From a virus: 64,000 bases of DNA. Each line of letters opens with the position of its first letter. Position 1 is the first letter of the stretch. The DNA lies in the IMG/VR virus record IMGVR_UViG_3300003690_000002, positions 32,001-96,000 of that record; one strand, given 5' to 3'. Under the pieces are notes generated by a model. That model did no database searches. It was not told where the DNA came from and saw nothing but the letters and a program-made list of their open reading frames with translations. Of this stretch, positions 36,739 through 58,316 are shown piece after piece. The position numbers were made by a program, and so were the translations under genes.

Positions 36739-39705
36739 TTATAATTTTAATCCAGGTTGACGCCACCCGTCTGGTAGGGCTTTAATATACTCTTTAGTTA
36801 TTATTATTGGCTGCACTTCCATTGAGGCTAAATCTGGAAAGTGCTTTCCTTTATTAGTCCAACCCTGCACGTTTCCAGTATGATTACCATAAAGGTGACT
36901 GCGCAGTAGGAATCCACCCTTTACTTGACCTTTGCTTGAATATCGATCAACTTTGCGGGAAAAGTAATTCCATAGACCCATCCATTTATTGTAAAAAACC
37001 GCAGGTGTACAATATTTAGACATTTGACCATTTCTTTTCCCCTCTGCAGCTGTGATGCCGTTGATGCCCTGACAACCTGTTCCAGTCGCAGGCAGCTTTG
37101 ATCTTTTAGATCTACACCCGCCATGACATCTATATTTAACACCTTCTACCCCAGTCGATACTGCTGTCTGCCCGTAATTGGAATAAGCATTTCTCCAATC
37201 TGACCAACCCTTACTCCAACCAGGCGAGGCACTAGTACCAAGCGGATCGCCCCAGGGCTGACCTGCTTTAGCTCTCTTCATGAAGTTTGGACCTCCTGCT
37301 GGTCCTTGTTGGTGTAACATATACAGGTGTGCTCCATTTACCTCATACCCCATCGCCAATAATATTCTTTTACTACCCATCATCATCTTTACTGTCATCA
37401 TTGCCTGATTGTGTGGGTTTAGCCAATGCTCTAGATCTTTTACAGCGCGGACTTTATTCTGCGCCTTGGATCCTGGACCTCCTGATACCCACGATGGATA
37501 GCCATGTGCCCACAGTCCGGAATATCCATTTTTGCCCATACTGTTTATATAGCCTCCTGATTCAATCAAGCACTTCACTCGTAACATGCCTGCTACGTCG
37601 GGGGCGGACATGCCGAGGCCGGGGGCAGCCCAGACTGCCGCCTTTTCTATAGCGTCTTCAACGACTGGCACCAAAGCTCTAGAAGCTGCATTTGGATATG
37701 CCACGGCCGCTGCGCCTGCAATACCGCCGACACCGCCGCCAGTTGCGCTACCTGGTCCGCAGGCAAGCGAGCCCAATGCTGCAGCTAATATAGAGACAGG
37801 ATCTACTGGAGCAGGGGGGGCAGGGATTGGTGTTGTTTCGATTGTTGTTTCTGGTACCTTGGCTACACCTAGTGATTTTAACTGCTCCTCATATTGCTTT
37901 AACTGAGATTTCAACTTTAGAACTGTAGGCTCTCGCTCCTTAAGATAATGCTGAGCATCTTTGTATTGTTTGTCGGTGGGCGTAGCGGTGCCGCCCATCA
38001 ACTGGAGCGCTCCAGCGTGCACATCGCTGTCAGCTAAGGACTTGTCTGGGGTGGCTTGCGAGAGGAATTCCTTTCTTTTGAGCAGGTACATATTAGCTCT
38101 CCTAACAATGTCCCTTAATGGGTCATTCTCGGTTTTGTATCCGGCGATCTGCTCTTTGTGTTCTTTTACTTTAGCTTTTAGTGTTGCAGCTGTGGTATCG
38201 GCGGCGGGGCTAGCTATGCCTTCGGCGGGTTTCGTTACAATCTGATCTACTCCGGGTACTGCTTTCTCAGCAGAACCGGGCATAACTGTTTGACCAGCAC
38301 CCCTAGCTTGAAATATCGTTTCTAGTGTTCTTGTGTATGCCTCCGCAGCGGCTTTGCCACAATGTATCCCATCTCCAATTGGATGACCAGGTATCATACC
38401 AGGACCAACAAGAGAGTGCACTTGAGCTAAATTTAGAAGTACAACATATTTTTCATCTTTTAACTGTTCAAACATATTTTTTGTTACAATTTGCCGACTT
38501 TTAGCGTATGGAATATATTTCGGGTCGTCTCTATATTTATTTCCAGGCTTTATCCCGCTTCCGGCTGGGGGGGTGTATTTGCGGCAGCATGCCCACTTAT
38601 GGCTTAGAGAGGCGGGGCGGACGCCTGCCGGGACAACACCATTAAAAAGTATTGTTGCCTTTGGGGCTGCGGCTTTAACTGCTTGGCAAAGCTCTTTAAC
38701 TTTTTCTAACCCTTTGCCTTTTGAAAAAGACAGTGAGTCATTGCCTCCAAGATTTATCCATACCAATCTCGTAGTTGGATCTTTTAACTGAAGATGGATT
38801 TTACTCCACTGATGTCCGAGTTTGCTTTTAGTCCAATCACGATTTTTTGTGCTTGGGAGCCAGTGTCTGTGACCTGACCCGGCTTTGCCATGGCGGTAAG
38901 TTTTCCACCCTTTTGATTTAAACCATGCTTGTGTAGCCTTGCCGAGGTGTCCAGAGCACTGACTATCGCCAAATAATACAACTTTTTCATTTTTTGTTAC
39001 ATTTAAATTTGGCAATCCTGTGTGTCTTAAATTTTCTGGCACTTGTGACCATGTTGCTGTCGGTGTTGGTACTGTCTGCAATGAACCCTGCGTACATAAG
39101 CCAATCTGTGGGGAAGTCAGGGCTGCTCCAGCTGTTGCAACCTCGGCGATGGGTTTGATATATATTCCATCGCGAAATTCTGTTTTGTTTTTAAAATCGA
39201 CCCAAACCAAACTTCCAACTTTTGGTTCCTCTACTCTGTTACTTTGAGCAATAAAAGTTGGGTACATCTCAATTATTTGTTGATGATTTCCTTCGGCAGC
39301 CCTGATATCTCCATATTGCGAAGGATCCGGATACATAGCGTGTATTTCTGGTATTCGTACCCTTATTTTTACTAAATGTGTTTGTACGGCTTCTTCGGTT
39401 CGTTCTGGCATAAGACCTGCTAGGGCTCTAAAAAGTTTTGTTATTGGATCGAAACCTTGGCGTGTTGGCTTTCCTTTATTTGCTGTTCTTTCCCCTGCTC
39501 CAACATCAACTCTAAGTACTTGTCCAATATATGGACCAGTGCCTTCTAGCCCTTTTGGTCTAAAAGTTTCTCGCGCAGTTGCCGCAGTAATATCCCATAG
39601 GCTATGCCGTTTATTATCCATCAGTGGCTCTATTAGGGGTTTGTTTACATCATTAAGTACGCCAAAAGGAAAAATCTTTGCTGACTCATTTTTTGCTTTA
39701 CTCAC
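36739..39705 (-). CDS. baseplate hub/spike protein: gp5-type OB-fold + SGNH/GDSL hydrolase + lysozyme-like (lytic transglycosylase) domain
   Basis: OB-fold: YIGQVLRV...VKIRVRIPE...PKVGSLVWVDF. SGNH blocks: LFGDSQ (GDS at 38962-38970), GKAGSG, NLGGNDS, GDGIH (DGIH at 38362-38373). Lysozyme-like: CLIESGG...SGLWA...YMLHQQGPAGG (about 37000-37650). Confidence 0.7.
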   Translation of the reverse strand: MSKAKNESAKIFPFGVLNDVNKPLIEPLMDNKRHSLWDITAATARETFRPKGLEGTGPYIGQVLRVDVGAGERTANKGKPTRQGFDPITKLFRALAGLMPERTEEAVQTHLVKIRVRIPEIHAMYPDPSQYGDIRAAEGNHQQIIEMYPTFIAQSNRVEEPKVGSLVWVDFKNKTEFRDGIYIKPIAEVATAGAALTSPQIGLCTQGSLQTVPTPTATWSQVPENLRHTGLPNLNVTKNEKVVLFGDSQCSGHLGKATQAWFKSKGWKTYRHGKAGSGHRHWLPSTKNRDWTKSKLGHQWSKIHLQLKDPTTRLVWINLGGNDSLSFSKGKGLEKVKELCQAVKAAAPKATILFNGVVPAGVRPASLSHKWACCRKYTPPAGSGIKPGNKYRDDPKYIPYAKSRQIVTKNMFEQLKDEKYVVLLNLAQVHSLVGPGMIPGHPIGDGIHCGKAAAEAYTRTLETIFQARGAGQTVMPGSAEKAVPGVDQIVTKPAEGIASPAADTTAATLKAKVKEHKEQIAGYKTENDPLRDIVRRANMYLLKRKEFLSQATPDKSLADSDVHAGALQLMGGTATPTDKQYKDAQHYLKEREPTVLKLKSQLKQYEEQLKSLGVAKVPETTIETTPIPAPPAPVDPVSILAAALGSLACGPGSATGGGVGGIAGAAAVAYPNAASRALVPVVEDAIEKAAVWAAPGLGMSAPDVAGMLRVKCLIESGGYINSMGKNGYSGLWAHGYPSWVSGGPGSKAQNKVRAVKDLEHWLNPHNQAMMTVKMMMGSKRILLAMGYEVNGAHLYMLHQQGPAGGPNFMKRAKAGQPWGDPLGTSASPGWSKGWSDWRNAYSNYGQTAVSTGVEGVKYRCHGGCRSKRSKLPATGTGCQGINGITAAEGKRNGQMSKYCTPAVFYNKWMGLWNYFSRKVDRYSSKGQVKGGFLLRSHLYGNHTGNVQGWTNKGKHFPDLASMEVQPIIITKEYIKALPDGWRQPGLKL

Positions 39706-41237: not shown

Positions 41238-41499
41238 TTTTTTCTGACTGTCCTCCAATGCTCGTGTCTGCTGTTGGATTATCTGTAGATGTTGATAATT
41301 TTTCTTCAAAATCTTTATCAAATTTAACAATAGGAGGATTCATTATTACCAAACCTTCTTCAGAGAGTTTAAACTTGAATCCTTTCAAAGTTAGAACAAT
41401 ATCGCTCTGCTCCATCAAACTTTTTTGAAGCGCTAACATCAACGCGCCGACTGCTTGATCTGTCATATACATATCTTTTGTCATTTTAATCTCCTTCAT
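41224..41499 (-). CDS. hypothetical protein
   Basis: 91 aa; 4-nt overlap with the upstream dehydrogenase gene. No family recognised. Confidence 0.55.
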   Translation of the reverse strand: MKEIKMTKDMYMTDQAVGALMLALQKSLMEQSDIVLTLKGFKFKLSEEGLVIMNPPIVKFDKDFEEKLSTSTDNPTADTSIGGQSEKNANL

Positions 41500-42353
41500 T
41501 TATTTGTCGTACTTATCGCACGACCTTTAAGTTTTTCCCAATCTTTTTCTGGGCGGACTTCTAAATTTTTATACCATATAGCCCTAAGCACAATTGGGTC
41601 AATATTTAAGCTTTCTGCAGTTTTAATTAATGCATTTAAATCTTTTGGGAAACAAGAACCGCCGAAACCAGCTTTTCCATCTGGACCTGGTACTGAAAAG
41701 TGGGTTTTACCTAGTCTTTTATCGTATAAACTATATTCTATAACTTTATCATAATCTATGTTAACTTTTTCACATATTTGTTTGATTTCATTAGAAAAGC
41801 TTACTTTCAGAGCAAGAAAACAATTTGTAAAGTATTTTACCATTTCTGCAGTATCAGATCCGGTTTTAATTAAAACAGTTTCTGGAAAGATCTTTCGATA
41901 CAAATTTTTAACTTTTGTTGAAGCCGGTCGGGGTCCGCCGATTACAATTCTTGTTTGGTTTTTAAAATCATTAATAAAGTTTGCTTCTGTTAAAAACTCT
42001 GGGTTAAATACAATTTGAATATTTTTGCATTCTCTATTCAAATTTTGTGTTGTTCCTGGTGGCACAGTCGACTTAATAATCACAACATGATTTGCTCTTT
42101 GTGTTTCGGATACTTTATCTATTTCATATACAGCTTCTTTAACAATAGACAAATCACAAGAACCATCTTCTCTCATAGGAGTCGGCAAGCAAATAAAAAC
42201 TATATTAACTTTCTTGCAAAGCTCTTCTAATGAATTGCATGTAGAGTGTTTAAACTTATCATAAGTTTCTACTTCTAATTTTTCTTTAAATCCCTCTTTG
42301 ATAGCAGTTCCAACAAAGCCTTGCCCAACAATCCCAATATTTTTAAAATTCAT
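41496..42353 (-). CDS. ugd: UDP-glucose/GDP-mannose 6-dehydrogenase family (short form)
   Basis: IGIVGQGFVG Rossmann motif, ICLPTP, IKSTVPPGTT, FNPEFL, KYFTN, and catalytic GFGGSCFPKD. Ends at 285 aa, lacking the usual C-terminal domain. Confidence 0.85.
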   Translation of the reverse strand: MNFKNIGIVGQGFVGTAIKEGFKEKLEVETYDKFKHSTCNSLEELCKKVNIVFICLPTPMREDGSCDLSIVKEAVYEIDKVSETQRANHVVIIKSTVPPGTTQNLNRECKNIQIVFNPEFLTEANFINDFKNQTRIVIGGPRPASTKVKNLYRKIFPETVLIKTGSDTAEMVKYFTNCFLALKVSFSNEIKQICEKVNIDYDKVIEYSLYDKRLGKTHFSVPGPDGKAGFGGSCFPKDLNALIKTAESLNIDPIVLRAIWYKNLEVRPEKDWEKLKGRAISTTNK

Positions 42354-43231: not shown

Positions 43232-43594
43232 TCACTTTAAAATTTCATTTATATCATAAATATAATCATTTTTATCAAAATTTGTTGAACATAGGACCAA
43301 AAGAACATCATCTCCAGTCATATACTCTTGTTCGCCCCAAACCATTTGATCCATGAATATGCAATCGCCTATTTTTAAAATCTTTTCTTCTTCAAGATCT
43401 TTTCCTGTTAATTTAACTCGCACTTGTCCCTTGACACAAATTAAATATTGTTGATCCTGCCTGTGTCCGTGATTTCCTCTGACTTCGCCTTGTGGTACAC
43501 CATAAATGAAATACATTCTCTTTGGTTGAAATTTTAAATCTTTAAACTCAACGTAACTTAAAGCTCCTCTATCTTCTATGTGATGTGATAACAT
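43232..43594 (-). CDS. fdtA: FdtA/QdtA-family cupin, dTDP-4-oxo-6-deoxyhexose 3,4-ketoisomerase
   Basis: DRGALSYVE...PKRMYFIYGVP..EVRGNHGH...LLVLCSTNFDKNDYI. Confidence 0.85.
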   Translation of the reverse strand: MLSHHIEDRGALSYVEFKDLKFQPKRMYFIYGVPQGEVRGNHGHRQDQQYLICVKGQVRVKLTGKDLEEEKILKIGDCIFMDQMVWGEQEYMTGDDVLLVLCSTNFDKNDYIYDINEILK

Positions 43595-44507
43595 ATGGCT
43601 TTATCTCCTTGATTATATATTCAATTTCTTTGTTGGTAAGTTTTTCGTGATAGGGTATACTTACTGTTGTTTTATTCTCAAATTCAGATTTTTCAAGACT
43701 CGCATTTTCAACTTTATAACAGTCCATTAAATGTAATGCATTATAATGTATACCGCACTGCACTCCAATTCCTTTCATAAGTTTTAAAAAATTATTATTA
43801 TTTTCCACATTGATTCTATATAAATGCTCACTTGTATTATTTAACTCAAAAGCTAAATTATATCTCTCACGCATTTCTTTAAGTCGATCCATTTTGTTAG
43901 ATAGTTTTTTAAAGTTTTCATTCGCAATAAAAGCCTGGATTGAATTCATATATAATTTCCATCCTGGTAAAATTATTTTTCTTTCCCAACTATTTTCCTC
44001 TAAAGAAATTCCATTTCGAGATAATACTCTCAATTGATCAATTTTGTTTTTATCGTTTGATACTACCATGCCGCCGTCAGAGCTGCCTACTGGTTTTGTG
44101 GGATAAAAACTGAAAATCATTATGTCTTTATCATTGGCTTGTTGTGCAAACTGATCTTTGCATAGCTGTTGTGCAGAATCAATAATTTTATAATCTTCAA
44201 ATCTATGTAAAATATAAGAATTTCCTACCCAGCCTATATCATCTTTATAATTAATTTTATTTCCTGAACATAGAATCGCATTCGCCACCACAGGAGGTAA
44301 AATGCTCGGTATCGTAATGGTAATATCTTTTTGTTCGAATAAAGAAAGAAAAATTGCACTAGTTGCGCTATTCAATGAACATGCATATTTTGCCCCAACA
44401 AAATTAGCGATCTTGTTTTCAAATTCTGTAACCACCTCATCGTGTAAAAGCGGTTGGAATTGTGAAGTATCTACTACATAATCATTAATATGCATTAATT
44501 TAATCAT
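43569..44507 (-). CDS. DegT/DnrJ/EryC1/StrS-family PLP sugar aminotransferase (FdtB-like)
   Basis: FENKIANFVGAKYACSLNSATSAI, IIDSAQ, FSFYPTKPVGSSDGGMV (PLP lysine), GWKLYM. Confidence 0.85.
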   Translation of the reverse strand: MIKLMHINDYVVDTSQFQPLLHDEVVTEFENKIANFVGAKYACSLNSATSAIFLSLFEQKDITITIPSILPPVVANAILCSGNKINYKDDIGWVGNSYILHRFEDYKIIDSAQQLCKDQFAQQANDKDIMIFSFYPTKPVGSSDGGMVVSNDKNKIDQLRVLSRNGISLEENSWERKIILPGWKLYMNSIQAFIANENFKKLSNKMDRLKEMRERYNLAFELNNTSEHLYRINVENNNNFLKLMKGIGVQCGIHYNALHLMDCYKVENASLEKSEFENKTTVSIPYHEKLTNKEIEYIIKEIKPYVITSHRR

Positions 44508-44815
44508 TTTTCACCTTTAGTATTGAAAAATATTTCAGAATTTATTGCTTTATCACAAATAAAATAATCGTAATGTGGTTTGCCTACCCGAACATCGTGA
44601 TATTTCACGCCCCAAGCACGAAGTTGAGCTTTAGTTAAAGAAAGCCAATTTATTCCTGTTACCGAGCCCCTTGCCGTCCAATATATAATGGTCTCACCCT
44701 CATCATATAGTTTGTTTATTTTCTTAATATTGTCTTTTAACGGCATAGCCTTTTTATAATCTCCATCTGTGTTCATACATATGGTACCATCAATGTCAAT
44801 ATAATAAATTTTCAC
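44504..44815 (-). CDS. small capless HAD-superfamily phosphatase
   Basis: Motif I YIDIDGTIC, motif II WTARG, motif III GKP, motif IV ICDKA, within 103 aa. Confidence 0.8.
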   Translation of the reverse strand: MKIYYIDIDGTICMNTDGDYKKAMPLKDNIKKINKLYDEGETIIYWTARGSVTGINWLSLTKAQLRAWGVKYHDVRVGKPHYDYFICDKAINSEIFFNTKGEK

Positions 44816-45666
44816 TAATATCCTCTAAGCTTCTTTCTAATTATTAATTCGCTTTTTGTTACTTTTTTTTCATCACTTCCAAGTATTATATCAATATCTT
44901 TAACTCTTTTATAGAGCATATCCATGGCTATAACTTCCAAACTAGCCCTTTGATCAGTTCCCCACATATTATGTGATAAAGTAATGTGTCTTTCAATTAC
45001 TTTCGCGCCTAACACAGCTGCTATAACTGTGGGTTCTAAATCCTGTTCGTGTCCTGAATATCCAATAACACATCCGTATCTTTTTTTAAGAAATGGAATA
45101 ATTCTTAAATTTAATTCCTTTTTTGGAGTTGGGTAGCTTGAATTTGTATGCATAATTACTGGATTCTTACCTGACTTCATAACTGTATTGACGGCAATAT
45201 CAACCTCTTCTAAAGTAGACATTCCAGTTGACATTATAATTGGCTTATTTGTTCTCGCTGTCTCTATTAATAATTCGGTATTTGTTATTAGTGCCGAGGG
45301 AATTTTTATAAATGGTACGTTGTAATTCATAATAAACTCAAGACTATCCAAATCCCACACAGAGGCTGTCCAGTCAATGGGTTTTTCTAAACAATATTGA
45401 TTTATAGTACTATATGCTTTGTAACCAAATTCAATTTTATGTTTATAATCTATGTAAGCCATGGTACCCCAAGGCGTTTCTCGTAATTTATTTTTTTGAT
45501 GGTTTGGTACGCATATGTCTGGATTACGCTTTTGAAATTTGGCACAATCCCAATTACATGCTGAAACTGCGTCAATAAGTTTTTTTGTCACTTGCATATC
45601 CCCATTGTGATTGATTCCAATTTCTCCAATAAAATATGGATATTTAAGATTTTCAAAATCTACCAT
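44815..45666 (-). CDS. neuB: NeuB-family nonulosonate (sialic-acid-like) synthase, no C-terminal SAF domain
   Basis: FIGEIGINHNGD, AKFQKRNP, IKIPS, IMSTGMST, HTNSSYP, GYSGHE, IERHITL. Start re-called at ATG 45666 with GGAGG SD. Confidence 0.92.
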   Translation of the reverse strand: MVDFENLKYPYFIGEIGINHNGDMQVTKKLIDAVSACNWDCAKFQKRNPDICVPNHQKNKLRETPWGTMAYIDYKHKIEFGYKAYSTINQYCLEKPIDWTASVWDLDSLEFIMNYNVPFIKIPSALITNTELLIETARTNKPIIMSTGMSTLEEVDIAVNTVMKSGKNPVIMHTNSSYPTPKKELNLRIIPFLKKRYGCVIGYSGHEQDLEPTVIAAVLGAKVIERHITLSHNMWGTDQRASLEVIAMDMLYKRVKDIDIILGSDEKKVTKSELIIRKKLRGY

Positions 45667-46355
45667 ATCGTCCAACCTCCATCTATATTGAATACAGCTC
45701 CAGTCGCGTATGATGAACTATCAGAGCACAAGTATTCGATCATTCCGTTTAGTTCATTAATTTTCATCATACGCTTCAAAGGAGTTTTGCTCTTATAAAG
45801 ATCAATAAATTTTTTACTTTGTTCTGTTGATGGTTTAAAAGTTACCCCACCTGGCGCAATACAATTAACTCTAATATTGGGTGCCAAGTGTACAGCTAAA
45901 TATCTTGTTAATTGAACTACTCCAGACTTTGAAACGCAATATCCAATATGTTTTTCTTTTCCTTCCTCATATAAGGCGGGGTTTGGTGAAACAACTCCAT
46001 AAATTGAAGAAAAATTTATAATAGAACCGCTTTTGTTGTTTCTGGCAAATTCGCGACATACCGAAAATAAACTTAACAAATTTACCTGTAAATAAGAATT
46101 GAGTGAATCTAGTGTTATATCAAATAAATTTGTTGAGTCATCTGCAGCATCAATATGTGGATTTAAAGCATATAAGTTGATTAAATAATCGGCTCTGTTG
46201 TCTTTAAAAAATCTTTTTACAAACCCTTCATCAGTTAAATCATGTCCTAGTTGAAGATCGCAGTGAATTACTTCATATCCTTTAGAAATTAAATAAGAAG
46301 AAGTTTCAGTTCCTATTAGCCCTTCTGAACCAGTTATAATAACTTTCTTATTCAC
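45660..46355 (-). CDS. short-chain dehydrogenase/reductase (PtmA-like type found in nonulosonate loci)
   Basis: IITGSEGLIG, INFSSIYG, YCVSK (YxxxK), IRVNCIAPGG, IDGGWTIW. GTG start. Confidence 0.85.
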   Translation of the reverse strand: MNKKVIITGSEGLIGTETSSYLISKGYEVIHCDLQLGHDLTDEGFVKRFFKDNRADYLINLYALNPHIDAADDSTNLFDITLDSLNSYLQVNLLSLFSVCREFARNNKSGSIINFSSIYGVVSPNPALYEEGKEKHIGYCVSKSGVVQLTRYLAVHLAPNIRVNCIAPGGVTFKPSTEQSKKFIDLYKSKTPLKRMMKINELNGMIEYLCSDSSSYATGAVFNIDGGWTIW

Positions 46356-47358
46356 TTGAAGTTCCTAACATTGCGCCTGAAAGGCTTACCTGCGAGCAAT
46401 CTTTAGCCCATTCTCTAAGTTGTTTAACAAAATCAACACCAATATTGTCTGACCAAGTATTACATATTTTTTGAGTAATTGTACCCATAGGGTTTTCTTT
46501 AACGATATCATTAAAATACTCACCATTTAGTCTATTACATGGCAATAAATTAATAAAACTACTAGTAAACATTGCTTCATCACAATCCATGACGTCATAT
46601 GGTTCAAAATTTTTATATACCACTTCTAAATTAATCTGTGGTGCTAAAACTTCAAGCACATACATCATGCTCGAACCCCTGAGCATATTTCTTAATTCGG
46701 GAACTATTAATTTCTCATTCTTTACCATCAAAAAGTTCGCACCAGTGCTTTCTGTGATAAATCCATCTTCGTCGAGCAAAAGAGGCATAGCATCTTTTCC
46801 AAATGTCTTTGTTTGTAAATTTGCCATCTGGTAATGTAACCTACTCCTATTTTTTACCTTGTTTTCTAAAAGTCGCGATGGTATTTGTCTTTGTGATGGT
46901 ATAACAGCATTCGCTCCTGTGTCGTAAAAATGCCCTAAAGATCCAGCAGTTTTATTCAATGGCCATACATTTATAATCCAAGTTGGATCACTCCACGCTT
47001 CTCCTTTTTGTAATTCAAAAACTTCTTTATAAATGGGCAGAGGACCTCTAGAAACATTAATTAAAATACGGCATTCTTCCCCTAAAGAAAAGTGCTCGAT
47101 ATTGCGCTGGAGCGTCTCTTGGCATAAATTATAAACTTCTTTTTTTGATTTTGTAATTGGTATTTGCAAATATCTCATACTTCTAAAAAGTCTATCGATG
47201 TGTTCATCTAAGAGAAAAAATTTATTATTAAAAGTTCTTGCCATTTCAAAAACAGCATCTCCAAACATAAATTGTGAATCGTATATGTGAATCGAAGCTT
47301 TAGATTCGGGCACCCACTCTCCAGAGTGATATGTTACTCTTTCTTTTTTACTGGACAT
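46348..47358 (-). CDS. PLP fold-type IV aminotransferase (BCAT/D-AAT family)
   Basis: FMFGDAVFEMART, HIDRLFRSMRYL, NKVKNRSR (PLP lysine region), LLLDEDGFITESTGANF, DEAMFTSS. Start re-called at ATG 47358 with GGAG SD. Confidence 0.85.
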   Translation of the reverse strand: MSSKKERVTYHSGEWVPESKASIHIYDSQFMFGDAVFEMARTFNNKFFLLDEHIDRLFRSMRYLQIPITKSKKEVYNLCQETLQRNIEHFSLGEECRILINVSRGPLPIYKEVFELQKGEAWSDPTWIINVWPLNKTAGSLGHFYDTGANAVIPSQRQIPSRLLENKVKNRSRLHYQMANLQTKTFGKDAMPLLLDEDGFITESTGANFLMVKNEKLIVPELRNMLRGSSMMYVLEVLAPQINLEVVYKNFEPYDVMDCDEAMFTSSFINLLPCNRLNGEYFNDIVKENPMGTITQKICNTWSDNIGVDFVKQLREWAKDCSQVSLSGAMLGTSSE

Positions 47359-47367
47359 ATGCATCTC

Positions 47368-48129
47368 CTAAATTAATCGCTTGTTGAGCTTATTTTGATT
47401 ATCTAAATAATCTTGATGTTTGTGCCTATTAATTAATGCAATCTCTGGTTGCTCATCTATAAGCCTAATCACATCCATTAAAGAGAAATTATAATTTCCC
47501 ATATTATAAAAATATTCAGAAATAGTAGTAAAGAATTTTAAATCCTCTTCGTAATCTAAAGTTGCTCTAATTTCTGGTCTGTTATATTCTTTTGGTACAT
47601 TTTTAAGTAATTTTGTTTTAAACATTTTCATACTTGAAAGAGTAAGCCATGCCGCTTCTGTATCATTAGTGTTTTTAAGCTCGCACACTTTTTTAATCGT
47701 ATCAGTCTTTACACCAAACGTAAATGCTCCACAAATCATATTTTTCTCATCTATTCTAACAAAATCATGTAATTCTCTTTCATATTGTTCAAAGGCTAAA
47801 TCTATTAATTCTGGTTCGCAAAATAAATCGTCGCCGTCAATGTTGACAAAATAATCAATATTATATTGTAAGGCGGCTTTTAGCCATCTATCAAGCTTGT
47901 CTTCTAAGCTTCCTTGAAAAAAATCAATATGATGAGCTTTAGCAATTTCACAAAGTACCCTATCTTCATCCATAGCGCTAGTACATAAAATTATTTTATT
48001 TGTTTTGTTAGATTTTTTAGCTCGCTCTATACAAAATTCAATTGTTTTCTTGCCACAAATTGTTCTAAGTGCTTTATTTGGAAGCCTGGTTGAACCTGTT
48101 CGAACTGTAATAAATATTCCTTTTGTCAT
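47368..48129 (-). CDS. ulosonate cytidylyltransferase (SpsF/PseF/NeuA/KdsB family)
   Basis: ITVRTGSTRLPNKAL, FQGSLEDKLDR, VNIDGDDLF, RATLDYEED. Start re-called at ATG 48129 with GGAGG SD. Confidence 0.88.
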   Translation of the reverse strand: MTKGIFITVRTGSTRLPNKALRTICGKKTIEFCIERAKKSNKTNKIILCTSAMDEDRVLCEIAKAHHIDFFQGSLEDKLDRWLKAALQYNIDYFVNIDGDDLFCEPELIDLAFEQYERELHDFVRIDEKNMICGAFTFGVKTDTIKKVCELKNTNDTEAAWLTLSSMKMFKTKLLKNVPKEYNRPEIRATLDYEEDLKFFTTISEYFYNMGNYNFSLMDVIRLIDEQPEIALINRHKHQDYLDNQNKLNKRLI

Positions 48130-48139
48130 AAAGCCTCCA

Positions 48140-49843
48140 CTACATTTCAAGTACTTTTTCAATTTGATCACTGTCTACATATTCTCTAGCTTTTAAAAAT
48201 TGTTCTAATGGCATGGCGCCAAAACTAACAGGATTTCCATCTTTGTCATTTAAAACTTTTGTAGCATCATCAAGCTCTAAAACATAATTATGAAAAGAAT
48301 CATCACAAATAGGATCTCCGAAATTATCAAATGAAATTCCAAAATGTTTTTGCAGATTCGGTCGCACAACATTCCACATCGCTGTGCCAGGATAAGCAGT
48401 CGCTGTAAACATTTTCTGATTCACTGCCAGTGTTGCTAGTTCATATTCTGAGGTTCCTTGCGTTAACCCTTCGCGCCAAAAGTCGCGCTGCCATAAAATA
48501 AATGCAACGCTTGTCTTAAGATGTTGCAATTCTTCACCTGGATACCCCATAATCCAAGTACAGTTTGGATGTATATTAGTAGATTTACAGTTTTTAATTG
48601 CATTGACCATGGTAGTTGGAAATTGATAAGTATTTCCATTTATAACAGTGGGCGTTGAGCCATTTTTGAGAATAAAGCCGCCCTTGTTCATATTTTTCAG
48701 TGTATGTTCGCTAGCTGATTCTGCACCAAAACCAATATATACACATCCCGATGCTGACATATCAACCAATCTTTCATCAGCTTCATCCATGCGAGTGTGA
48801 GTACCCCATCTGATTTGATCAAGATCATAATTTTTAAAAACAGAAACCATACGTTTAATGCGTCTTTTATCAACTGCAAAGTTATCATCTGGAAAACCGA
48901 TAAAATCTAAATTATATTTATCAACATAATTTCTTATCTGTTTTGCTATGTGCTCACAAGAACGCATTCCATAATTTCTTTCTCCTTGCGCGCCACGATA
49001 GCAAAATGCACATGCATATGGGCATCCTCTGCTGCTTACTGTTGTTAAACTTCTTTTCATAGAAAAGGAAGTAGCAGAGCTATTATTTGCAGCCAAGCCC
49101 CAAACTGGTACTTTGATATAATCTTCTAAGACGTTATAACCATAAGGATCAGATTCTAATAAATCTAAAGCAGCATATGGTAAAGAATCTAGATTCATAG
49201 GTCTATTACCTTCATATATAAATCGATGTTTATCATTAAACTCGCCTCTATAAAATGGACTTAGTTTTGTAGATTTTATAGCCCGACTAATTCCCAATTC
49301 TTTAATAACTTTAGAATCATGCATTATTAATAAAATAATATCATCTCCCTCTGAACGCCCAACAGCATCAAGTTCAGGAATCCACTCGAAAAGACCGCCA
49401 CTAATTTCGGTTGCCAGTCCATTTCCGGATACTAAAAAAGTATCAGGTTGGTGTTTTCTTATTATTTTTGCGATTTTCTCTTGCCATCGGAGTGTTGTTA
49501 TTTTACCTGAAAATGCAATGACATCTTGATCCCCAACATTATTCAAGTGACGTATAATCATTTTCTCAGCTTCATCATAAGTTAAATGTCTACCATTAAT
49601 AAGATTTTGTTTCTTGGCTAAATCGTCATTAACACGATAAGCATTTAAATCAATTATGTAAGCTTCGGCTCCATATTGTCTAGCAATTGCAGCAAGAATA
49701 CCTGGTCCTTCTGGGGGCACGTTCGGCTTAGCTGATTCTCTCAATGGCATATTAATAAACGTTATTTTCAACCCCTTAAAAGCATCATAAGAAATATTCT
49801 TTATCAATTCATAAGGGTGTGGTGATTTAATTCTTATTTTCAT
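48140..49843 (-). CDS. B12-binding radical SAM protein (class B-like)
   Basis: CxxxCxxC motif in SRGCPYACAFC, FPDDNF, GFGAESAS, WIMGYPGE. N-terminal PPEGPGILAA...IIDLNA cobalamin-domain-like region. Confidence 0.85.
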   Translation of the reverse strand: MKIRIKSPHPYELIKNISYDAFKGLKITFINMPLRESAKPNVPPEGPGILAAIARQYGAEAYIIDLNAYRVNDDLAKKQNLINGRHLTYDEAEKMIIRHLNNVGDQDVIAFSGKITTLRWQEKIAKIIRKHQPDTFLVSGNGLATEISGGLFEWIPELDAVGRSEGDDIILLIMHDSKVIKELGISRAIKSTKLSPFYRGEFNDKHRFIYEGNRPMNLDSLPYAALDLLESDPYGYNVLEDYIKVPVWGLAANNSSATSFSMKRSLTTVSSRGCPYACAFCYRGAQGERNYGMRSCEHIAKQIRNYVDKYNLDFIGFPDDNFAVDKRRIKRMVSVFKNYDLDQIRWGTHTRMDEADERLVDMSASGCVYIGFGAESASEHTLKNMNKGGFILKNGSTPTVINGNTYQFPTTMVNAIKNCKSTNIHPNCTWIMGYPGEELQHLKTSVAFILWQRDFWREGLTQGTSEYELATLAVNQKMFTATAYPGTAMWNVVRPNLQKHFGISFDNFGDPICDDSFHNYVLELDDATKVLNDKDGNPVSFGAMPLEQFLKAREYVDSDQIEKVLEM

Positions 49844-49869
49844 TGTAAAAACCTAATGTAATTATAACT

Positions 49870-50514
49870 TTAAAATCTACAGACTTTAAGATTTTTTAAT
49901 CCGGGATCAAAAGAAGAGTAAGTAAAATAATGAAATAAAATTTCCGGAAATAAAGATGTTATTGTCTTATGAGAATTTTTTATCTTATTTGAAACTATCT
50001 CATCTTGAGGATCCGCCTCATTATGTCCTAAAAAATATTCTGTTTCGTAAAAATCAATTCCAATTACATATATTTCATCTGCTTTTAATTCTAGGGCGGC
50101 ATGCAATAAAGCCATATCAGAGGAATTTTCAACAATATTCATATATTTCTCTAGAGAATCTGAATGATAATTATACGGTATCTTATACAGGCTTTCGAAA
50201 TTGCGTCCTTTGTATCCAGTTCTCCACCAATTTGTATTTCCATCTGGTCGCAATCTGGCTATGTAGACTTCTTGGACATTAAAATTATTTACAAAATCAT
50301 GATCCAAGCCTGACTCACAAATATTAACTTGTTGAATTATTTTTTTATTTTTTAAAAAATTATGTATTTTTTGATTTTCTTTAACAAATAAATTAAATTC
50401 ATTTATTAATATTACATGATCAAAATCAATATCTAAATTTGAATGATCTATGCGCTCTAGTGAGTTACCCCTGCCGCATATTAATATCTTTATTTTTTCA
50501 GCTGTTTTTTCCAT
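49870..50514 (-). CDS. CstII/GT42- or Maf-like putative nonulosonyl (sialyl-type) transferase
   Basis: KILICGRGNSLERIDHSNLDIDFDHVILINEF versus recalled CstII KVIIAGNGPSLKEIDYSRLPNDFDVFRCNQF; SSDMALLHAALELKADEIYVIGIDFY versus TSGVYMCAVAIALGYKEIYLSGIDFY. First gene of the NeuB block in transcription order. Confidence 0.62.
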   Translation of the reverse strand: MEKTAEKIKILICGRGNSLERIDHSNLDIDFDHVILINEFNLFVKENQKIHNFLKNKKIIQQVNICESGLDHDFVNNFNVQEVYIARLRPDGNTNWWRTGYKGRNFESLYKIPYNYHSDSLEKYMNIVENSSDMALLHAALELKADEIYVIGIDFYETEYFLGHNEADPQDEIVSNKIKNSHKTITSLFPEILFHYFTYSSFDPGLKNLKVCRF

Positions 50515-51434
50515 AATTCAGTTGTTATATCCAAACCCCTATCTAATGAAATTGTAGGCTCCCAGTTTAAAACTCTCTTGGCTTTTTCCGAAGTTGAATT
50601 AAGATAATAGATTTCACCTGCGCGGGGTGGTTTCGTTCCCCAATTAACTTTCCCTTTCCAATTGAGTTTTTTTGCGACTAAATCTACTAAATCTTTTATT
50701 TGAATGGCATTATCCGGACCAGTACAGAAGAATTCTCCTTTTGCTAAATCAACATTTTTCAAAATTGTTGTATATAAATTAATCAAATCATCAATAAATA
50801 AAAAATTTCTATATGGTTGTCTGTATCCTAAATTAATTTCGTTTGGGTTTTTTAGCATTTGGACTATTATTTGCTCAACAACAAAAAAATCATTATCCCA
50901 TCTTCCATATGTATTCGTCTGTCTAAGTGCAGTAAATGGAAAATCATATGCTCTTTCAGCATAGCTTAAATAATATTCGCATCCAATTTTAGCTACTGCA
51001 TATGGGGCATTGGGGTATTGTTTTGTTTCTTCATTAAACGCTTTCCATTCTGATTTTGGCACTGCGCCATATGTCTCCATGGTCGACGAAAAAACAAATA
51101 ATTCTAAATTTGTTAAATCTTTTGATTTTTCTATTAAATTAACAGTTCCATCATAATTTACAGTTTGAAAATGAATTGGATCATAAAAACTTTTTTCTAC
51201 TTCCGTTCTTGCTGCTAGATGAATAATAAAATGTGGGTTTGCTTCTCTTAGGTGCGCACCAACTTGCTCAAAATCTGTTAAAGAGCCAACCCACGGTGTA
51301 TATTCGAATCCTAAATTTCTATCGGGATCTTTTTCTACCAAGCCGTGTATTTCATAGCTGCCATCTCGAATTAATTCTTTGGCTAAATATTTTCCTATAA
51401 ACCCGCTTATTCCTGTTATAAACACTTTTTTCAT
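50490..51434 (-). CDS. NDP-sugar 4,6-dehydratase/epimerase (RmlB/Gmd-like)
   Basis: FITGISGFIG, HLAARTEVEKSF..P, FSSTMETYG, PYAVAK. Confidence 0.85.
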   Translation of the reverse strand: MKKVFITGISGFIGKYLAKELIRDGSYEIHGLVEKDPDRNLGFEYTPWVGSLTDFEQVGAHLREANPHFIIHLAARTEVEKSFYDPIHFQTVNYDGTVNLIEKSKDLTNLELFVFSSTMETYGAVPKSEWKAFNEETKQYPNAPYAVAKIGCEYYLSYAERAYDFPFTALRQTNTYGRWDNDFFVVEQIIVQMLKNPNEINLGYRQPYRNFLFIDDLINLYTTILKNVDLAKGEFFCTGPDNAIQIKDLVDLVAKKLNWKGKVNWGTKPPRAGEIYYLNSTSEKAKRVLNWEPTISLDRGLDITTELWKKQLKK

Positions 51435-52184: not shown

Positions 52185-53084
52185 TCATATCTGATTGTCT
52201 GATTCTTTTACTGAGGGAGCAAAAGGTGGAAGATTTGGTAATTTTGGCTCATATAACCCCTTGTTCCTTAAATCAAAATCATATAGTGGATTGTCAAAAT
52301 GTGTATAGGCAAATAAGCCAAGTGATTCTAAATCGCCCCAACGATGCTTATAAAGACCACCATATTCGTTTATTTTGCTCATCCACTCTGCCCAGCCATG
52401 CTCTAGGAATGTTTTTACATTATAAATATTAAAATTACCACAAGACCAGCGTAAACTGTGCATCTTCATTTCATCATTGTCCTGAATGGCGGCGTTTAGT
52501 TGCTCATCTTTCGGTTTATAGCTATTTTCTGCTAGGTATTCTTTAAAAAATGACCAAAGATTCTCCCTAGTTTCAAGATGATTTTGTCCAACGTGAGACC
52601 ATGTAAATCCAGTGGCAAGTGGGTATTCTTTCATAACGTCAAAAAAATCATAATTAATTTTTGTTTTAAACCAAGAATCATCATCAATTCTCATTATATA
52701 CTCATATTCTTCCAGTTCTTTACCCACACAACCTTTTTCTCCAAATTTATGAAAATTAGATGAAAAATGTTCCATATGTAAGTATCCCAATCGAGAGGAG
52801 GGAAATGAAGAACGGACATAATTTAGGTAACTTCTATTATAAAAAAGCTCACTCTCGGGAATATGAGAAGGAACACCATAATCTATTTGCCTAAAGTTTA
52901 TATCAACACTAACATTCTCTTTGACGTCATCAATATACTCTTGGCTATAAATATCATCAAAATAATAAATATAAACAGGATATTGAAACTCATTATTCCA
53001 ATTTTCATAAAATAACTCTAGTGCTGTTTTTAGCGAATCTGTTCTAGAAGATAATATATATACACAAGCGTTATGCTTTCCCAT
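52185..53084 (-). CDS. GT15 (Kre2/Mnt1-like) glycosyltransferase, putative alpha-1,2-mannosyltransferase
   Basis: GYLHMEHF, EYEYIMRIDDDS, INYDFFDVM, NFNIY, GGLYKHRWGD match the Kre2-family pattern (SYRHMCRF...YDxYWRVEPD...GGFFYERWGD). No N-terminal TM segment. Confidence 0.78.
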   Translation of the reverse strand: MGKHNACVYILSSRTDSLKTALELFYENWNNEFQYPVYIYYFDDIYSQEYIDDVKENVSVDINFRQIDYGVPSHIPESELFYNRSYLNYVRSSFPSSRLGYLHMEHFSSNFHKFGEKGCVGKELEEYEYIMRIDDDSWFKTKINYDFFDVMKEYPLATGFTWSHVGQNHLETRENLWSFFKEYLAENSYKPKDEQLNAAIQDNDEMKMHSLRWSCGNFNIYNVKTFLEHGWAEWMSKINEYGGLYKHRWGDLESLGLFAYTHFDNPLYDFDLRNKGLYEPKLPNLPPFAPSVKESDNQI

Positions 53085-55372: not shown

Positions 55373-56059
55373 TTACCACCTTTGTAATTCATAATTGTGT
55401 GGCAACCATTGAAACCAATAGTTGTTTCGTATATCTACATTCGGATATTTAAGAAGATACGATTTTGTAGACAACTTCCACTTGCAATAATAAAAACTCA
55501 ATTGGTCGCGGCGACTAAAGTTTCTAATTTCATCCCACCACATATTTGATAAATTTATTATATCATCAGAATTATGCTTTCTTAATAAAATTGAATTGGC
55601 ACAAAGTCCATTATTTTTTGGATACTCTTCCTTTTTATATTTCTCCATCTGTTTTCGGACTATTTCAGGATTGTCCTTATTATCTAACACAACCATCTTA
55701 GCTTCATCATATATGCACTGCCGACCCTGGTCATGTTCAAATAGAAGCATATTTGCGTTTTTTAAAAAATCTACTTTTTTAAGAAACGAATTAATATCCT
55801 TTTTAATTAAAAAATTTGCATCAATCCATAGACTAATGTCATATTCTTTCAAAAACTCATGAGGCTTTACTTTAAATATCTTAGCGCCCCTAACAGGATC
55901 TTTATGAGCCGATGCTCTATAAACAACTTGCCATATATCTGATTTTACCTCTTTATTATCTGTAAAGCATATATAATCAAAATCATTATTTATAAAAAGA
56001 GGATTTTTTAATGTATCTTTTTTCCCATATATCGCAGTATAAACAACTTTTTTATTCAT
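55373..56059 (-). CDS. DUF616 (TOD1/MUCI70-like) putative glycosyltransferase
   Basis: VVYTAIYGKKDTL, DYICFTD, KVKPHEFL..YDISLWIDAN, RQCIYDEA, RRDQLSF. Start re-called at ATG 56059. Confidence 0.8.
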   Translation of the reverse strand: MNKKVVYTAIYGKKDTLKNPLFINNDFDYICFTDNKEVKSDIWQVVYRASAHKDPVRGAKIFKVKPHEFLKEYDISLWIDANFLIKKDINSFLKKVDFLKNANMLLFEHDQGRQCIYDEAKMVVLDNKDNPEIVRKQMEKYKKEEYPKNNGLCANSILLRKHNSDDIINLSNMWWDEIRNFSRRDQLSFYYCKWKLSTKSYLLKYPNVDIRNNYWFQWLPHNYELQRW

Positions 56060-57718: not shown

Positions 57719-57738
57719 TTTATTGTTTTATCTTCCTT

Positions 57739-58302: not shown

Positions 58303-58316
58303 CTGCAGCCCTTTTT

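Follow-up and report, generated by a model that had tools for sequence, protein, structure and literature searches.

We found that a complete marine phage genome of 186 kb carries a sugar cassette of seven adjoining genes on the minus strand, at positions 44504-50514 of the window (the whole stretch of 64,000 nucleotides that was analysed; Table 1). In our opinion it is moderately probable that these genes encode a cytoplasmic pathway which makes, tailors, activates and transfers a sialic-acid-like 3-deoxy-ulosonic acid of the Kdn type, and which runs via a phosphorylated route. Our data support the overall interpretation given in a preliminary description of this DNA, which had read the block as a phage cassette for a sialic acid-like sugar. 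All seven consecutive genes named there were found in their places as open reading frames on the minus strand, with neighbouring frames either overlapping or lying no more than 26 nt apart. The same description had called the cassette self-contained, which was overstated, as the sugar phosphate, PEP, CTP, SAM and cobalamin must come from the host and the block is only one part of a larger island.

Table 1. Genes of the sugar cassette and the island around it, with positions in the window
Feature	Position	Strand	Basis
GT42/Maf-fold transferase, 214 aa	49870-50514	-	Family profile and AF2 fold
B12-type radical SAM enzyme, 567 aa	48140-49843	-	Radical_SAM, 63.5 bits
KdsB/NeuA-family cytidylyltransferase	47368-48171 (likely start Met15 at 48129)	-	CTP_transf_3, 72.6 bits
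Fold-type IV (class IV) aminotransferase	46348-47364	-	Aminotran_4, 136.9 bits
PtmA-like SDR, 231 aa	45660-46355	-	adh_short_C2, 112.8 bits
SAF-less NeuB synthase	44815-45675 (likely start Met4 at 45666, 283 aa)	-	NeuB, 224 bits
C0-type HAD phosphatase, 103 aa	44504-44815	-	DxDxT motif; TIGR01689, 35 bits
Glycan island of about 20 kb around the cassette (context, outside the cassette proper)	41496-61836	-	Pfam and NCBIfam

In the pathway that we propose, the SAF-less NeuB would combine PEP with an aldose phosphate of the host, most likely mannose-6-phosphate, to give an ulosonate phosphate, and the 103-aa HAD would take off the phosphate. The NAD-dependent SDR may then oxidise a hydroxyl group, and the class-IV aminotransferase would convert the resulting carbonyl into an amine. 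This oxidise-and-aminate logic is modelled on the synthesis of Kdo8N by KdsC, then KdnB, then KdnA, and the carbon freed by the phosphatase would be the simplest guess for the position of the amine. The B12-type radical SAM enzyme could modify the sugar further in an optional step, most likely by C-methylation. In gentamicin synthesis, C-methylation by GenK precedes the action of GenQ and GenB1, an oxidation/transamination pair working on an amino sugar. The KdsB/NeuA-family enzyme would yield the CMP-sugar, which the miniature GT42-fold enzyme would use to move the sugar onto a glycan or protein within the infected cell. The acceptor is probably a glycan made by the neighbouring soluble glycosyltransferases, on which the added sugar would form an acidic cap.

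The NeuB synthase scores 222.4 bits against the NeuB/LegI model TIGR03569 and 165.8 bits against the PseI model TIGR03586, in both cases below the cut-off (399.65 for the equivalog and 340.25, respectively). It lacks the C-terminal SAF domain: the protein stops at residue 286, TIGR03569 is matched over positions 2-274 of 329, and the close relatives are all 282-286 aa long. In canonical NeuB/LegI enzymes, the SAF (antifreeze-like) domain gives Arg314 to the sugar site. The metal-binding residues His209 and His230 as well as the PEP-binding residues (K, Q, S, N and D) are kept, but the position of Glu134 of the Neisseria meningitidis enzyme is changed to Leu. In the NeuB tree, the phage enzyme falls in a SAF-less clade (SH-aLRT 98, stem length 0.43), which is separate from the SAF-bearing NeuB/LegI-like and PseI paralogues of the same phage lineage; a genuine PseI (locus L113, 356 bits) was also placed outside this clade. 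By the tree and by the NCBIfam scores, the enzyme does not group with the canonical Neu, Leg and Pse synthases, which is the comparison that the preliminary description had proposed. The phage protein belongs to a sub-clade (SH-aLRT 98) that tracks the presence of an aminotransferase, all viral members having one nearby. Such tracking would also suit a NeuB whose special substrate is a sugar phosphate already carrying the amine.

The small HAD has its intact DxDxT motif at residues 8-12 and matches PDB entry 9IQW (E 1e-9), and we presume that it is the ulosonate-phosphate phosphatase. Its gene abuts that of NeuB at position 44815, and the cytidylyltransferase gene sits two genes upstream of NeuB. 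A small phage HAD adjoins 20 of 83 SAF-less viral NeuBs, compared with 0 of 30 SAF-bearing ones (p = 0.0015), and most cellular SAF-less NeuBs (67 of 82) have a KdsC-type HAD within 2.5 kb. The best PDB match of the latter HADs is 3E81, the entry for BT1713, with 103 bits, essentially tied with KdsC. In the related loci L008-L010, the small HAD comes after KdsA. Several cellular members show the three functions fused or side by side: Herbidospora has CTP_transf_3, HAD and NeuB in one ORF of 683 aa, Anaerolineae have a fusion of CTP_transf_3 and HAD next to NeuB, and in Ignavibacteriales the genes for a CMP-transferase, a class-III aminotransferase, an SDR, a HAD and NeuB are consecutive. Streptomyces, for which a Kdn wall polymer has been described (PMC11481543), carries the fused form (locus L162). 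A fusion of NeuB with a phosphatase in Leptospira was earlier interpreted likewise, as a phosphorylated route (PMC3438082).

The CMP-Kdn pathways of Bacteroides thetaiotaomicron and Prymnesium parvum have the order of NeuB-family synthase, HAD phosphatase and cytidylyltransferase in common (PMC6200933). In B. thetaiotaomicron, these are the Kdn-9-P synthase BT1714, the Kdn-9-P phosphatase BT1713 and CMP-Kdn synthetase, with a sugar phosphate as the starting material; the specificity of Kdn-9-P synthases for Man-6-P is strict (PMC6200933). The likeness to the Bacteroides route had already been pointed out, and it is strengthened by the cellular domain fusions and the counts of adjacent HAD genes. 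However, the phage HAD is not orthologous, being a protein of 103 aa of the TIGR01689/9IQW type, and the phage adds the SDR, the aminotransferase, the B12-type radical SAM enzyme and the transferase.

It had also been stated that precursor enzymes of the Neu, Pse and Leg routes are not recognisable in the block, which is correct and extends to the complete genome. A search of the whole genome for Epimerase_2, KdsA, NTP_transferase, SIS, Hexapep, GNAT and PseG domains found none, so that the hydrolysing epimerase (NeuC/LegG), PseG, acetyltransferases, KdsA, SIS and NDP-sugar nucleotidyltransferase genes missing from the block do not lie elsewhere. The lack of genes for free-sugar precursors gives indirect support to a synthase that would use mannose-6-phosphate or another aldose phosphate and not a free sugar. 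This bears on the two genes that directly adjoin the cassette, a LegB-like gene at 50490-51434 and a PseC/FdtB-like DegT gene at 43569-44507. With host enzymes filling the gaps, these two could lead to a diamino nonulosonic acid of the legionaminic or pseudaminic type. Their best NCBIfam names are LegB (119 bits) and PseC (103 bits), and Leg clusters typically include a PtmA-like SDR (PMC4481668). However, we consider such a sugar decidedly improbable, as these scores are far under the cut-offs of 475 and 423, respectively, and acetyltransferase, LegG/NeuC, PseG and nucleotidyltransferase are all absent from the complete genome. DegT312 travels with FdtA as a separate module for a 3-amino-3,6-dideoxyhexose and is missing from loci L176 and L177, yet the cassette persists there. 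Moreover, NeuB lies outside the SAF-bearing clades, the sister phages hold separate SAF-bearing paralogues for that purpose, and the Leg and Pse routes work without a phosphatase.

For the cytidylyltransferase, the KdsB-type NCBIfam models outscore PseF, and the best PDB match is 6OEW (70 bits), with KdsB at 34 bits. The gene is kept in all type-A loci. The class-IV aminotransferase is not an IlvE orthologue, reaching 115.3 bits against TIGR01122 with a cut-off of 245.55; in the PDB it matches branched-chain aminotransferases (106 bits) and (R)-amine transaminases (about 60 bits). It takes the slot of a 402-aa DegT of sister phages (L006, L012 and L016 versus L003, L013 and L018), and in Ignavibacteria the slot is filled by a class-III enzyme. 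The use of three unrelated PLP families in the same slot points to a single amination step, with a free, non-nucleotide-linked sugar as its substrate. The DegT-402 of the sister phages matches BtrR (165 bits), KdnA (154 bits, rank 7) and NtdA (91 bits) in the PDB, its matches including, besides KdnA, other aminotransferases that act on non-nucleotide-linked substrates.

The SDR matches PRK09186 (127.6 bits) and FlagModPtmA (75 bits), has the motifs TGxxGxxG, Asp33 and YxxxK, and is predicted to prefer NAD. Its gene adjoins NeuB in 36 of 80 cellular loci and in most of the viral loci with a NeuB of 59% or higher identity to that of the phage; PtmA-like SDRs accompany NeuB also in cellular loci without an aminotransferase. 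The Kdo8N pathway of Shewanella (KdsC, KdnB, KdnA and KdsB) resembles the proposed route in that a free ulosonate is dephosphorylated, oxidised, transaminated and CMP-activated. The two differ in the enzymes, since the phage synthase is of the NeuB type and not of the KdsA type, an SDR stands in for the iron alcohol dehydrogenase KdnB, and a class-IV aminotransferase for the DegT-type KdnA.

The same enzymes could act in another order, with amination first. SDR and aminotransferase would then make an amino-hexose-6-phosphate, the type-A NeuB would condense it with PEP, and the HAD would act afterwards, leading to the same class of end product. There is a precedent in NtdC and NtdA, which make kanosamine-6-phosphate. 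The sub-clade of NeuBs, with an aminotransferase near every viral member, would be expected if the specificity of NeuB had changed, and the sugar-site position held by Glu134 in Neisseria meningitidis is Leu129 in the phage enzyme (KIGSGE and KIPSAL, respectively). GFO/IDH/MocA oxidoreductases of the NtdC/PtmF type are present in cellular cassettes, and the sister phages' DegT also matches NtdA in the PDB, although much more weakly than KdnA or BtrR. At locus L182, a type-A NeuB (73% identity) lacks the trio of SDR231, DegT402 and class-IV enzyme, though another DegT follows NeuB there. Furthermore, depending on its position, an unacylated amine would impede ring closure or make the free ulosonate less stable. 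Taken together, we regard amination before condensation as unlikely, but as deserving serious weight.

The radical SAM enzyme has its CxxxCxxC motif at residue 274. Its B12-binding domain scores 20.1 bits, under the cut-off of 32.1, and some homologues of 70% identity carry a PF02310 match. The best NCBIfam families are PhpK (77 bits, cut-off 600) and the Sden_1168 methyltransferases, both far under their cut-offs, and no close characterised relative was found (TokK, 30 bits). The enzyme resembles the class B (cobalamin-dependent) radical SAM methyltransferases GenK, Fom3, PhpK and TokK in having a putative N-terminal B12-type domain (sub-cut-off in the phage) followed by the CxxxCxxC core, whereas its family is mostly viral, with 77% viral members in its Atlas cluster, and is distant from the characterised enzymes. 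It is probably a C-methyltransferase that serves as an optional tailoring enzyme.

Radical SAM enzyme and aminotransferase might also work together on something other than the sugar backbone. In natural-product pathways, beta-methyl amino acids are made by a branched-chain aminotransferase paired with a methyltransferase or B12-type radical SAM enzyme, and the two phage enzymes could build or modify a side group, such as a beta-methylated amino or keto acid, that is attached later. Alternatively, the aminotransferase could target the keto group at C2 of the open-chain ulosonate, given that class-IV aminotransferases are most closely related to alpha-keto-acid enzymes and that ulosonates are alpha-keto acids. 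Both variants appear improbable to us. The class-IV enzyme sits exactly in the slot of DegT-402 in sister phages and of the class-III aminotransferase in Ignavibacteria, and it occurs without the radical SAM enzyme, and vice versa (L012, L018 and L187). There is no ligase or acyltransferase for attaching a side group, and with an amine at C2 the sugar would lose the anomeric centre needed by the cytidylyltransferase.

The assignment of the 214-aa protein as a CstII/Maf-like transferase is borne out by its fold. Against Pfam CST-I it scores 17.3 bits (E 3.5e-3), under the gathering score of 25 bits, and just 2 of 47 family members show a CST-I match of any kind. However, a PDB search with the profile of this 47-member family matched solely GT42 sialyltransferases (Cst-I, Cst-II and lipooligosaccharide sialyltransferase). 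The AF2 model (pLDDT 93) gave VIA Z scores of 14.4 with Cst-II, 14.2 with Cst-I, 12.0 with Maf and 9.5 with GT29, the next unrelated folds being at about 5, and superposes on Cst-II (1RO8) with an rmsd of 3.4 Å over 180 residues. The family keeps the motifs R-G-x-S, N38 and G-x-D-F-Y-E..Y. Thus, fold and nucleotide/phosphate-binding motifs (G-x-S, N, G-x-DFY..Y) are common to the phage protein and the Campylobacter Cst-I/Cst-II and Maf flagellin nonulosonate transferases, from which it differs by its length of just 214 aa and by an identity of 16-20%. The family has no conserved histidine that would correspond to the catalytic His188 of Cst-II; His195 occurs in 36% of the members, the phage protein included. 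We presume that the protein is a CMP-ulosonate transferase. Its family is small, with 84 clusters at 50% identity among 1.84 billion proteins, and homologues are found beside the module in loci L003, L006, L008, L013, L017 and L022.

The surrounding island contains about nine glycosyltransferase-like genes, an RmlC/RmlD-like module, a GalE-like SDR and a short UDP-glucose dehydrogenase. Its module of 4,6-dehydratase, FdtA and DegT is split by the cassette, with the halves on either side. Among the island proteins there are no TM-like segments, except for one borderline stretch within the cytoplasmic DegT enzyme encoded at 43569-44507. No minus-strand terminators were found and promoter-like sites are no more frequent than expected by chance, and therefore the cassette is not a separate transcription unit. 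In related phages, the island always has the PD-(D/E)XK-GT4-GT4 genes on one side and the orf91-Zn-ribbon-orf227 genes on the other.

Some phages have gene clusters for attaching Kdo or other sugars to 5-hydroxymethylcytosine (bioRxiv 10.1101/2023.12.21.572611), and the island including the cassette might likewise decorate the phage DNA instead of proteins or envelope glycans. The island enzymes are all soluble, and a PD-(D/E)XK nuclease is encoded at the island border. However, the complete genome holds neither a dCMP hydroxymethylase of the thymidylate synthase family nor a cytosine-5 DNA methyltransferase, and the transferase has the fold of sialyltransferases and Maf, not that of the T4 beta-glucosyltransferase. 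A search for TET/JBP gave no match either, but its control was silent. We therefore hold a role in DNA decoration to be highly improbable.

Host-recognition islands rich in glycosyltransferases have been described in general terms for marine T4-like phages (PMC7029224). The islands of pelagimyophages and cyanomyophages are similar to that of our phage in being large, non-syntenic sets of LPS-type sugar genes at a fixed position beside tail-fibre and baseplate genes. Our phage represents another lineage, its baseplate wedge protein sharing about 30% identity with the homologues in Microcystis phage Mel-JY01 and the Flavobacterium immuto phages. Sialic, neuraminic or Kdo genes are not mentioned in that study (PMC7029224).

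In related phages, transferase, cytidylyltransferase and NeuB form a core, usually together with the HAD. Around this core, radical SAM enzyme, SDR and aminotransferase come and go independently of each other, the last being a DegT or class-IV enzyme, or class III in Ignavibacteria. The SDR occurs without an aminotransferase in loci L030-L032 and L073, and an aminotransferase without the SDR in L024. The three are not strictly coupled, and therefore the pairing of oxidation and amination is not proven. It is possible, if on the whole doubtful, that the lineage makes an undescribed nonulosonic acid, with a Kdn-type backbone, an amino group that is free or further modified and a C-methyl group from the radical SAM enzyme, and that the minimal GT42 enzyme puts it on the phage's own virion proteins. 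If this is true, the free swapping of radical SAM enzyme, SDR and three aminotransferase families would give rise to a combinatorial family of acidic sugars, and through it to more varied surfaces among ocean phages.

As to the suggestion that this is an undescribed phage system, no published description of the cassette was found in the literature, but the system is not peculiar to this phage. The modular gene kit is widespread in phages and bacteria. This type of NeuB is present on more than 537 IMG/VR contigs, and homologues of a clade member from Chitinophagales occur in 172 of 401 sampled Bacteroidia genomes, most of them at 65-87% identity.

Using Pfam and NCBIfam, we found that the seven open reading frames of the cassette are genuine and that each carries the domain ascribed to it in the preliminary description. 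The likely true start of the cytidylyltransferase is Met15 (48129) and that of the synthase NeuB is Met4 (45666), which gives 283 aa, as in P0001. For the B12-type radical SAM enzyme (rSAM), the ESM Atlas supplied no functional name. Extra checks were given to the two weakest domain calls, the HAD phosphatase and the transferase. In the 103-aa HAD the DxDxT motif is intact, and the protein matches TIGR01689, the small 'capsule biosynthesis phosphatase' family (35 bits), as well as PDB entry 9IQW (E 1e-9), on which our literature search found nothing directly relevant. The transferase (214 aa) scores below the cut-off of Pfam CST-I and belongs to a small family, with 84 clusters at 50% identity among 1.84 billion proteins. 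A profile built from 47 family members found no PDB structures other than GT42 sialyltransferases, with Cst-I at E 1.6e-6. Its AlphaFold model (pLDDT 93, pTM 0.91) aligns with Cst-II over 180 residues (Z 14.4, rmsd 3.4 Å), followed by Cst-I (Z 14.2), Maf (12.0) and mammalian GT29 (9.5), compared with about 5 for unrelated Rossmann folds. The family keeps the nucleotide- and phosphate-binding motifs and has no conserved histidine at the position of Cst-II His188.

The NeuB does not group with the canonical Neu, Leg or Pse synthases. It reaches 222 bits against the NeuB/LegI equivalog (cut-off 400) and 166 bits against PseI (cut-off 340), and it has no C-terminal antifreeze-like (SAF) domain. 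Matches in the PDB are uniformly distant: 6NCS, itself SAF-less, with 101 bits, SpsE with 98, PseI with 87 and Neisseria meningitidis NeuB with 65. In a maximum-likelihood tree of 84 rows, none of them a characterised Kdn-9-P synthase, all 60 SAF-less proteins fall into one clade (SH-aLRT 98, stem 0.43). Paralogues with a SAF domain, from the same phage lineage, branch apart and are NeuB/LegI-like by NCBIfam, with one PseI above the cut-off. Metagenomic relatives number at least 8000, of which the best 120 share 69-76% identity, apart from the window's own protein, and are all 281-298 aa long; relatives are encoded on at least 537 IMG/VR contigs. It has been reported that SAF-less NeuBs form an 'environmental' group which includes Streptomyces (PMC8208679). 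In many phages of the lineage (L028-L091), a single island has two or three paralogues, one of them SAF-less beside one or two with SAF that are NeuB/LegI-like, which argues for several nonulosonic acids per phage. Three contigs from metagenome-assembled genomes (Methanoregula, L092; Staskawiczbacteria, L093; Omnitrophica, L094) encode NeuBs that share 62-70% identity with the phage gene and are placed inside the phage type-A sub-clade; these could be recent phage-cell transfers or mis-binned phage contigs. On the Omnitrophica contig, a DegT aminotransferase (65% identity) and a different B12-type rSAM adjoin the gene.

The precursor enzymes that are absent from the cassette were not found elsewhere in the phage either. 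Domain searches of the complete genome gave no matches to Epimerase_2 (NeuC/LegG), DAHP_synth_1 (KdsA), NTP_transferase, SIS, Hexapep, Acetyltransf_1 or Glyco_tran_28_C (PseG). A product of the Leg or Pse type is highly unlikely in our judgement. The small HAD acts as the KdsC partner of a phage KdsA in loci L008-L010, a role ruled out here by the lack of KdsA in this genome.

The suggested parallel between NeuB, HAD and cytidylyltransferase and the phosphorylated route gained support from cellular genomes. Members of the clade (46-50% identity) are commonly carried by Actinomycetes, Anaerolineae, Ignavibacteria, Chlorobi, Planctomycetes and Bacteroidota. In Herbidospora, CTP_transf_3, HAD and NeuB lie within a single 683-aa reading frame; a CTP_transf_3-HAD fusion precedes NeuB in Anaerolineae, and the order in Ignavibacteriales is CMP-transferase, class-III aminotransferase, SDR, HAD and NeuB. 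Of 82 cellular SAF-less NeuBs, 67 have a KdsC-type HAD no more than 2.5 kb away. In phages, the small HAD adjoins 20 of 83 SAF-less but none of 30 SAF-bearing NeuBs (Fisher p = 0.0015). The NeuB of a Chitinophagales clade member has matches, most with 65-87% identity, in 172 of 401 sampled Bacteroidia genomes, a tally that takes in one unpublished genome (G369), on which no single conclusion depends. The HAD beside a Bacteroidota member matches BT1713, the Kdn-9-P phosphatase of Bacteroides thetaiotaomicron, with 103 bits and KdsC with 100 bits, so this match does not discriminate between the two. Man-6-P is the substrate of the Kdn-9-P synthases known from B. thetaiotaomicron and P. parvum, which also require a phosphatase (PMC6200933), a NeuB-phosphatase fusion of Leptospira has been interpreted as a phosphorylated route (PMC3438082), and the wall teichulosonic acid of Streptomyces is a Kdn polymer (PMC11481543, PMC13011467). 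In our reading, the published Kdn and Leptospira work agrees with a phosphorylated route.

We favour, with moderate confidence, a pathway of condensation, dephosphorylation, oxidation and amination, rSAM tailoring, CMP activation and transfer, in this order. NeuB would join PEP to a host aldose phosphate, probably Man-6-P, and the HAD would strip the phosphate from the product. The free ulosonate would then be oxidised by the SDR and aminated by the aminotransferase in the fashion of Kdo8N, and optionally modified by the rSAM, probably with a methyl group. The sugar would be activated by the cytidylyltransferase and transferred in the cytoplasm by the miniature GT42 enzyme. In sister phages, the DegT aminotransferase matches KdnA of the Kdo8N route with 154 bits, which is not its top match; others include aminotransferases acting on substrates that are not nucleotide-linked. 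Our literature search on KdnA and KdnB found nothing directly relevant. The main competing explanation reverses the order, with the hexose-6-P aminated before condensation. It is favoured by the 15-row sub-clade (SH-aLRT 98) in which the window's NeuB stands with the viral loci that have an aminotransferase, and by the altered sugar site, where a leucine occupies the position of N. meningitidis Glu134. The metal-binding histidines and PEP-binding residues of the enzyme are retained. We consider amination after condensation the better account and the reversed order possible, if rather doubtful.

The island occupies a fixed position in related phages, between the PD-(D/E)XK-GT4-GT4 and the orf91-Zn-ribbon-orf105-orf227-orf103 genes, and its content varies. 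Some loci have NeuB and HAD only. Others have transferase, rSAM, cytidylyltransferase, NeuB and HAD (L174, L180, L182; the transferase of L182 is Maf/MptE-like, 47 bits), or cytidylyltransferase, a 402-aa DegT, SDR, NeuB and HAD, either as such (L006, L016) or with an rSAM (L012/L176). A class-IV aminotransferase replaces DegT between cytidylyltransferase and SDR-NeuB-HAD, with no rSAM, in L018/L185 and L187, and the full set of the window recurs in L003, L013 and L015. Aminotransferases from three unrelated PLP families fill a single slot. Since the SDR occurs without an aminotransferase (L030-L032, L073) and the aminotransferase without an SDR (L024), the rSAM, SDR and aminotransferase are tailoring genes, each optional independently of the others, and the core consists of synthase, phosphatase, activating enzyme and transferase. 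That rSAM and aminotransferase serve a side group is unlikely. Obligate pairing of rSAM and class-IV aminotransferase was ruled out, as L012 combines the rSAM with DegT and L018, L185 and L187 have the class-IV enzyme but no rSAM. Apparent rSAM-NeuB-HAD trios lacking a cytidylyltransferase were likewise rejected: a short CTP_transf_3 gene lies between rSAM and NeuB, with a Maf-like gene upstream in L182. At the same position, the islands of L008-L010 (about 12100-20800) hold KdsA with a small HAD, a second cytidylyltransferase, a RuBisCO-large-subunit-like protein (394 aa), a sulfotransferase and a radical SAM/SPASM enzyme, a predicted sugar-tailoring repertoire that is very different.

Sugars of the sialic acid type have key roles in recognition and masking. 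To our knowledge, the backbone types and biosynthetic pathways described for them number only a handful. Taken singly, the Kdn route, GT42 enzymes, class B rSAMs and glycan islands of phages are nothing new, and the kit is widespread, not unique to the window. The literature searched gave no account of a phage cassette for making an ulosonate by the phosphorylated route, with exchangeable amination and rSAM tailoring and its own miniature sialyltransferase, and nothing directly relevant on phage-encoded Kdn or sialic acid synthesis. The SAF-less clade is large and biochemically uncharacterised, spans phages, Bacteroidia, Actinomycetes, Chloroflexota, Ignavibacteria and other groups, and its members are firmly coupled to a phosphatase and a CMP-transferase. 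As the core is combined in phages with changing sets of three kinds of tailoring enzyme, the compact, all-soluble seven-gene set with its own transferase lends itself to direct expression as a way to amino- or methyl-nonulosonic acids that may be new, to a new minimal scaffold of the sialyltransferase type and to a B12 radical SAM enzyme that would modify sugars. If the proposal is true, abundant marine phages devote genes at their host-recognition locus to decorating the virion or the infected cell with acidic glycans.

The block is not a separate operon. Its genes are translationally coupled to their neighbours, promoter-like sites were at chance level (63 found, 62.5 expected), promoter and terminator scans gave no block boundary, and there are no minus-strand terminators at 41-53 kb of the window. 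By Pfam and NCBIfam, the surrounding 20-kb island encodes glycosyltransferases (two GT4, GT2, GT8, GT15-like, TOD1/MUCI70-like and Glyco_trans_1_2), a methyltransferase, an RmlC/RmlD-like module, a GalE-like SDR, a short UDP-glucose dehydrogenase, a LegB/RmlB-like 4,6-dehydratase, FdtA and a second DegT aminotransferase. Apart from one borderline stretch in a cytoplasmic DegT enzyme, its proteins have no transmembrane-like segments, so genes for a flippase, a polymerase or a priming transferase are missing from the island. That the island, cassette included, serves DNA hypermodification has a real precedent in Kdo on 5hmC (bioRxiv 10.1101/2023.12.21.572611), but the complete genome has neither a dCMP hydroxymethylase family member nor a cytosine-5 methyltransferase, and we regard this explanation as very improbable. 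A TET/JBP search gave no match, and its control gave none either. The flanking dehydratase, DegT312 and FdtA form a separate module, which is split in two by the cassette, as if by insertion of the latter. L176 and L177 lack DegT312 and FdtA and retain the cassette, which there adjoins the right border of the island. No nucleotidyltransferase for making NDP-glucose was found in the complete genome. RmlA and RmlB are absent as well, so that a rhamnose-type module would depend on host dTDP-4-keto-6-deoxyglucose.

Features of the window with their positions
Feature	Position	Strand	Remarks
T4-type baseplate wedge protein	23314-25116	-	PHROG 219, E 1e-20
988-aa protein	36739-39705		directly downstream of the island; weak GDSL/SGNH hydrolase-like stretch, 24.7 bits, below cut-off
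Glycan island	41496-61836		
UDP-glucose dehydrogenase homologue	41496-42353		285 aa; N-terminal and central domains, no C-terminal UDP-binding domain; short form also in L003, 70% identical
FdtA 3,4-ketoisomerase	43232-43594		NDP-3-amino-3,6-dideoxyhexose module
DegT aminotransferase (DegT312)	43569-44507		NDP-3-amino-3,6-dideoxyhexose module
Seven-gene cassette	44504-50514	-	
4,6-dehydratase	50490-51434		NDP-3-amino-3,6-dideoxyhexose module
Glycosyltransferase-like genes	52185-53084, 55373-56065		families mainly eukaryotic (GT15 fungal alpha-1,2-mannosyltransferase, 65 bits; TOD1/MUCI70, 73 bits)
RmlC, RmlD-like protein (232 aa, short) and another SDR	56052-58320		
224-aa protein	63004-63678		upstream of the island; weak zinc-metallopeptidase-like matches (ATLF 23.8 bits, Peptidase_M90), all below cut-off

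The viral record is complete (186,398 bp, direct terminal repeats), and the window covers its bases 32001-96000. Every accepted gene of at least 100 aa in the window lies on the minus strand, and packing is tight. The baseplate wedge protein, together with three giant proteins of 3233, 3170 and 1297 aa, points to a large myovirus. By the wedge protein, the virus is closest among cultured phages to Microcystis phage Mel-JY01 and the Flavobacterium 'immuto' phages (about 30% identity), by which an identity as pelagimyophage or classical cyanomyophage was ruled out. Pfam and Ser/Thr composition of the giant neighbouring proteins yielded no hint of an acceptor. Judging from its hydrolase-like stretch, the 988-aa protein may be a fibre-borne glycan esterase.
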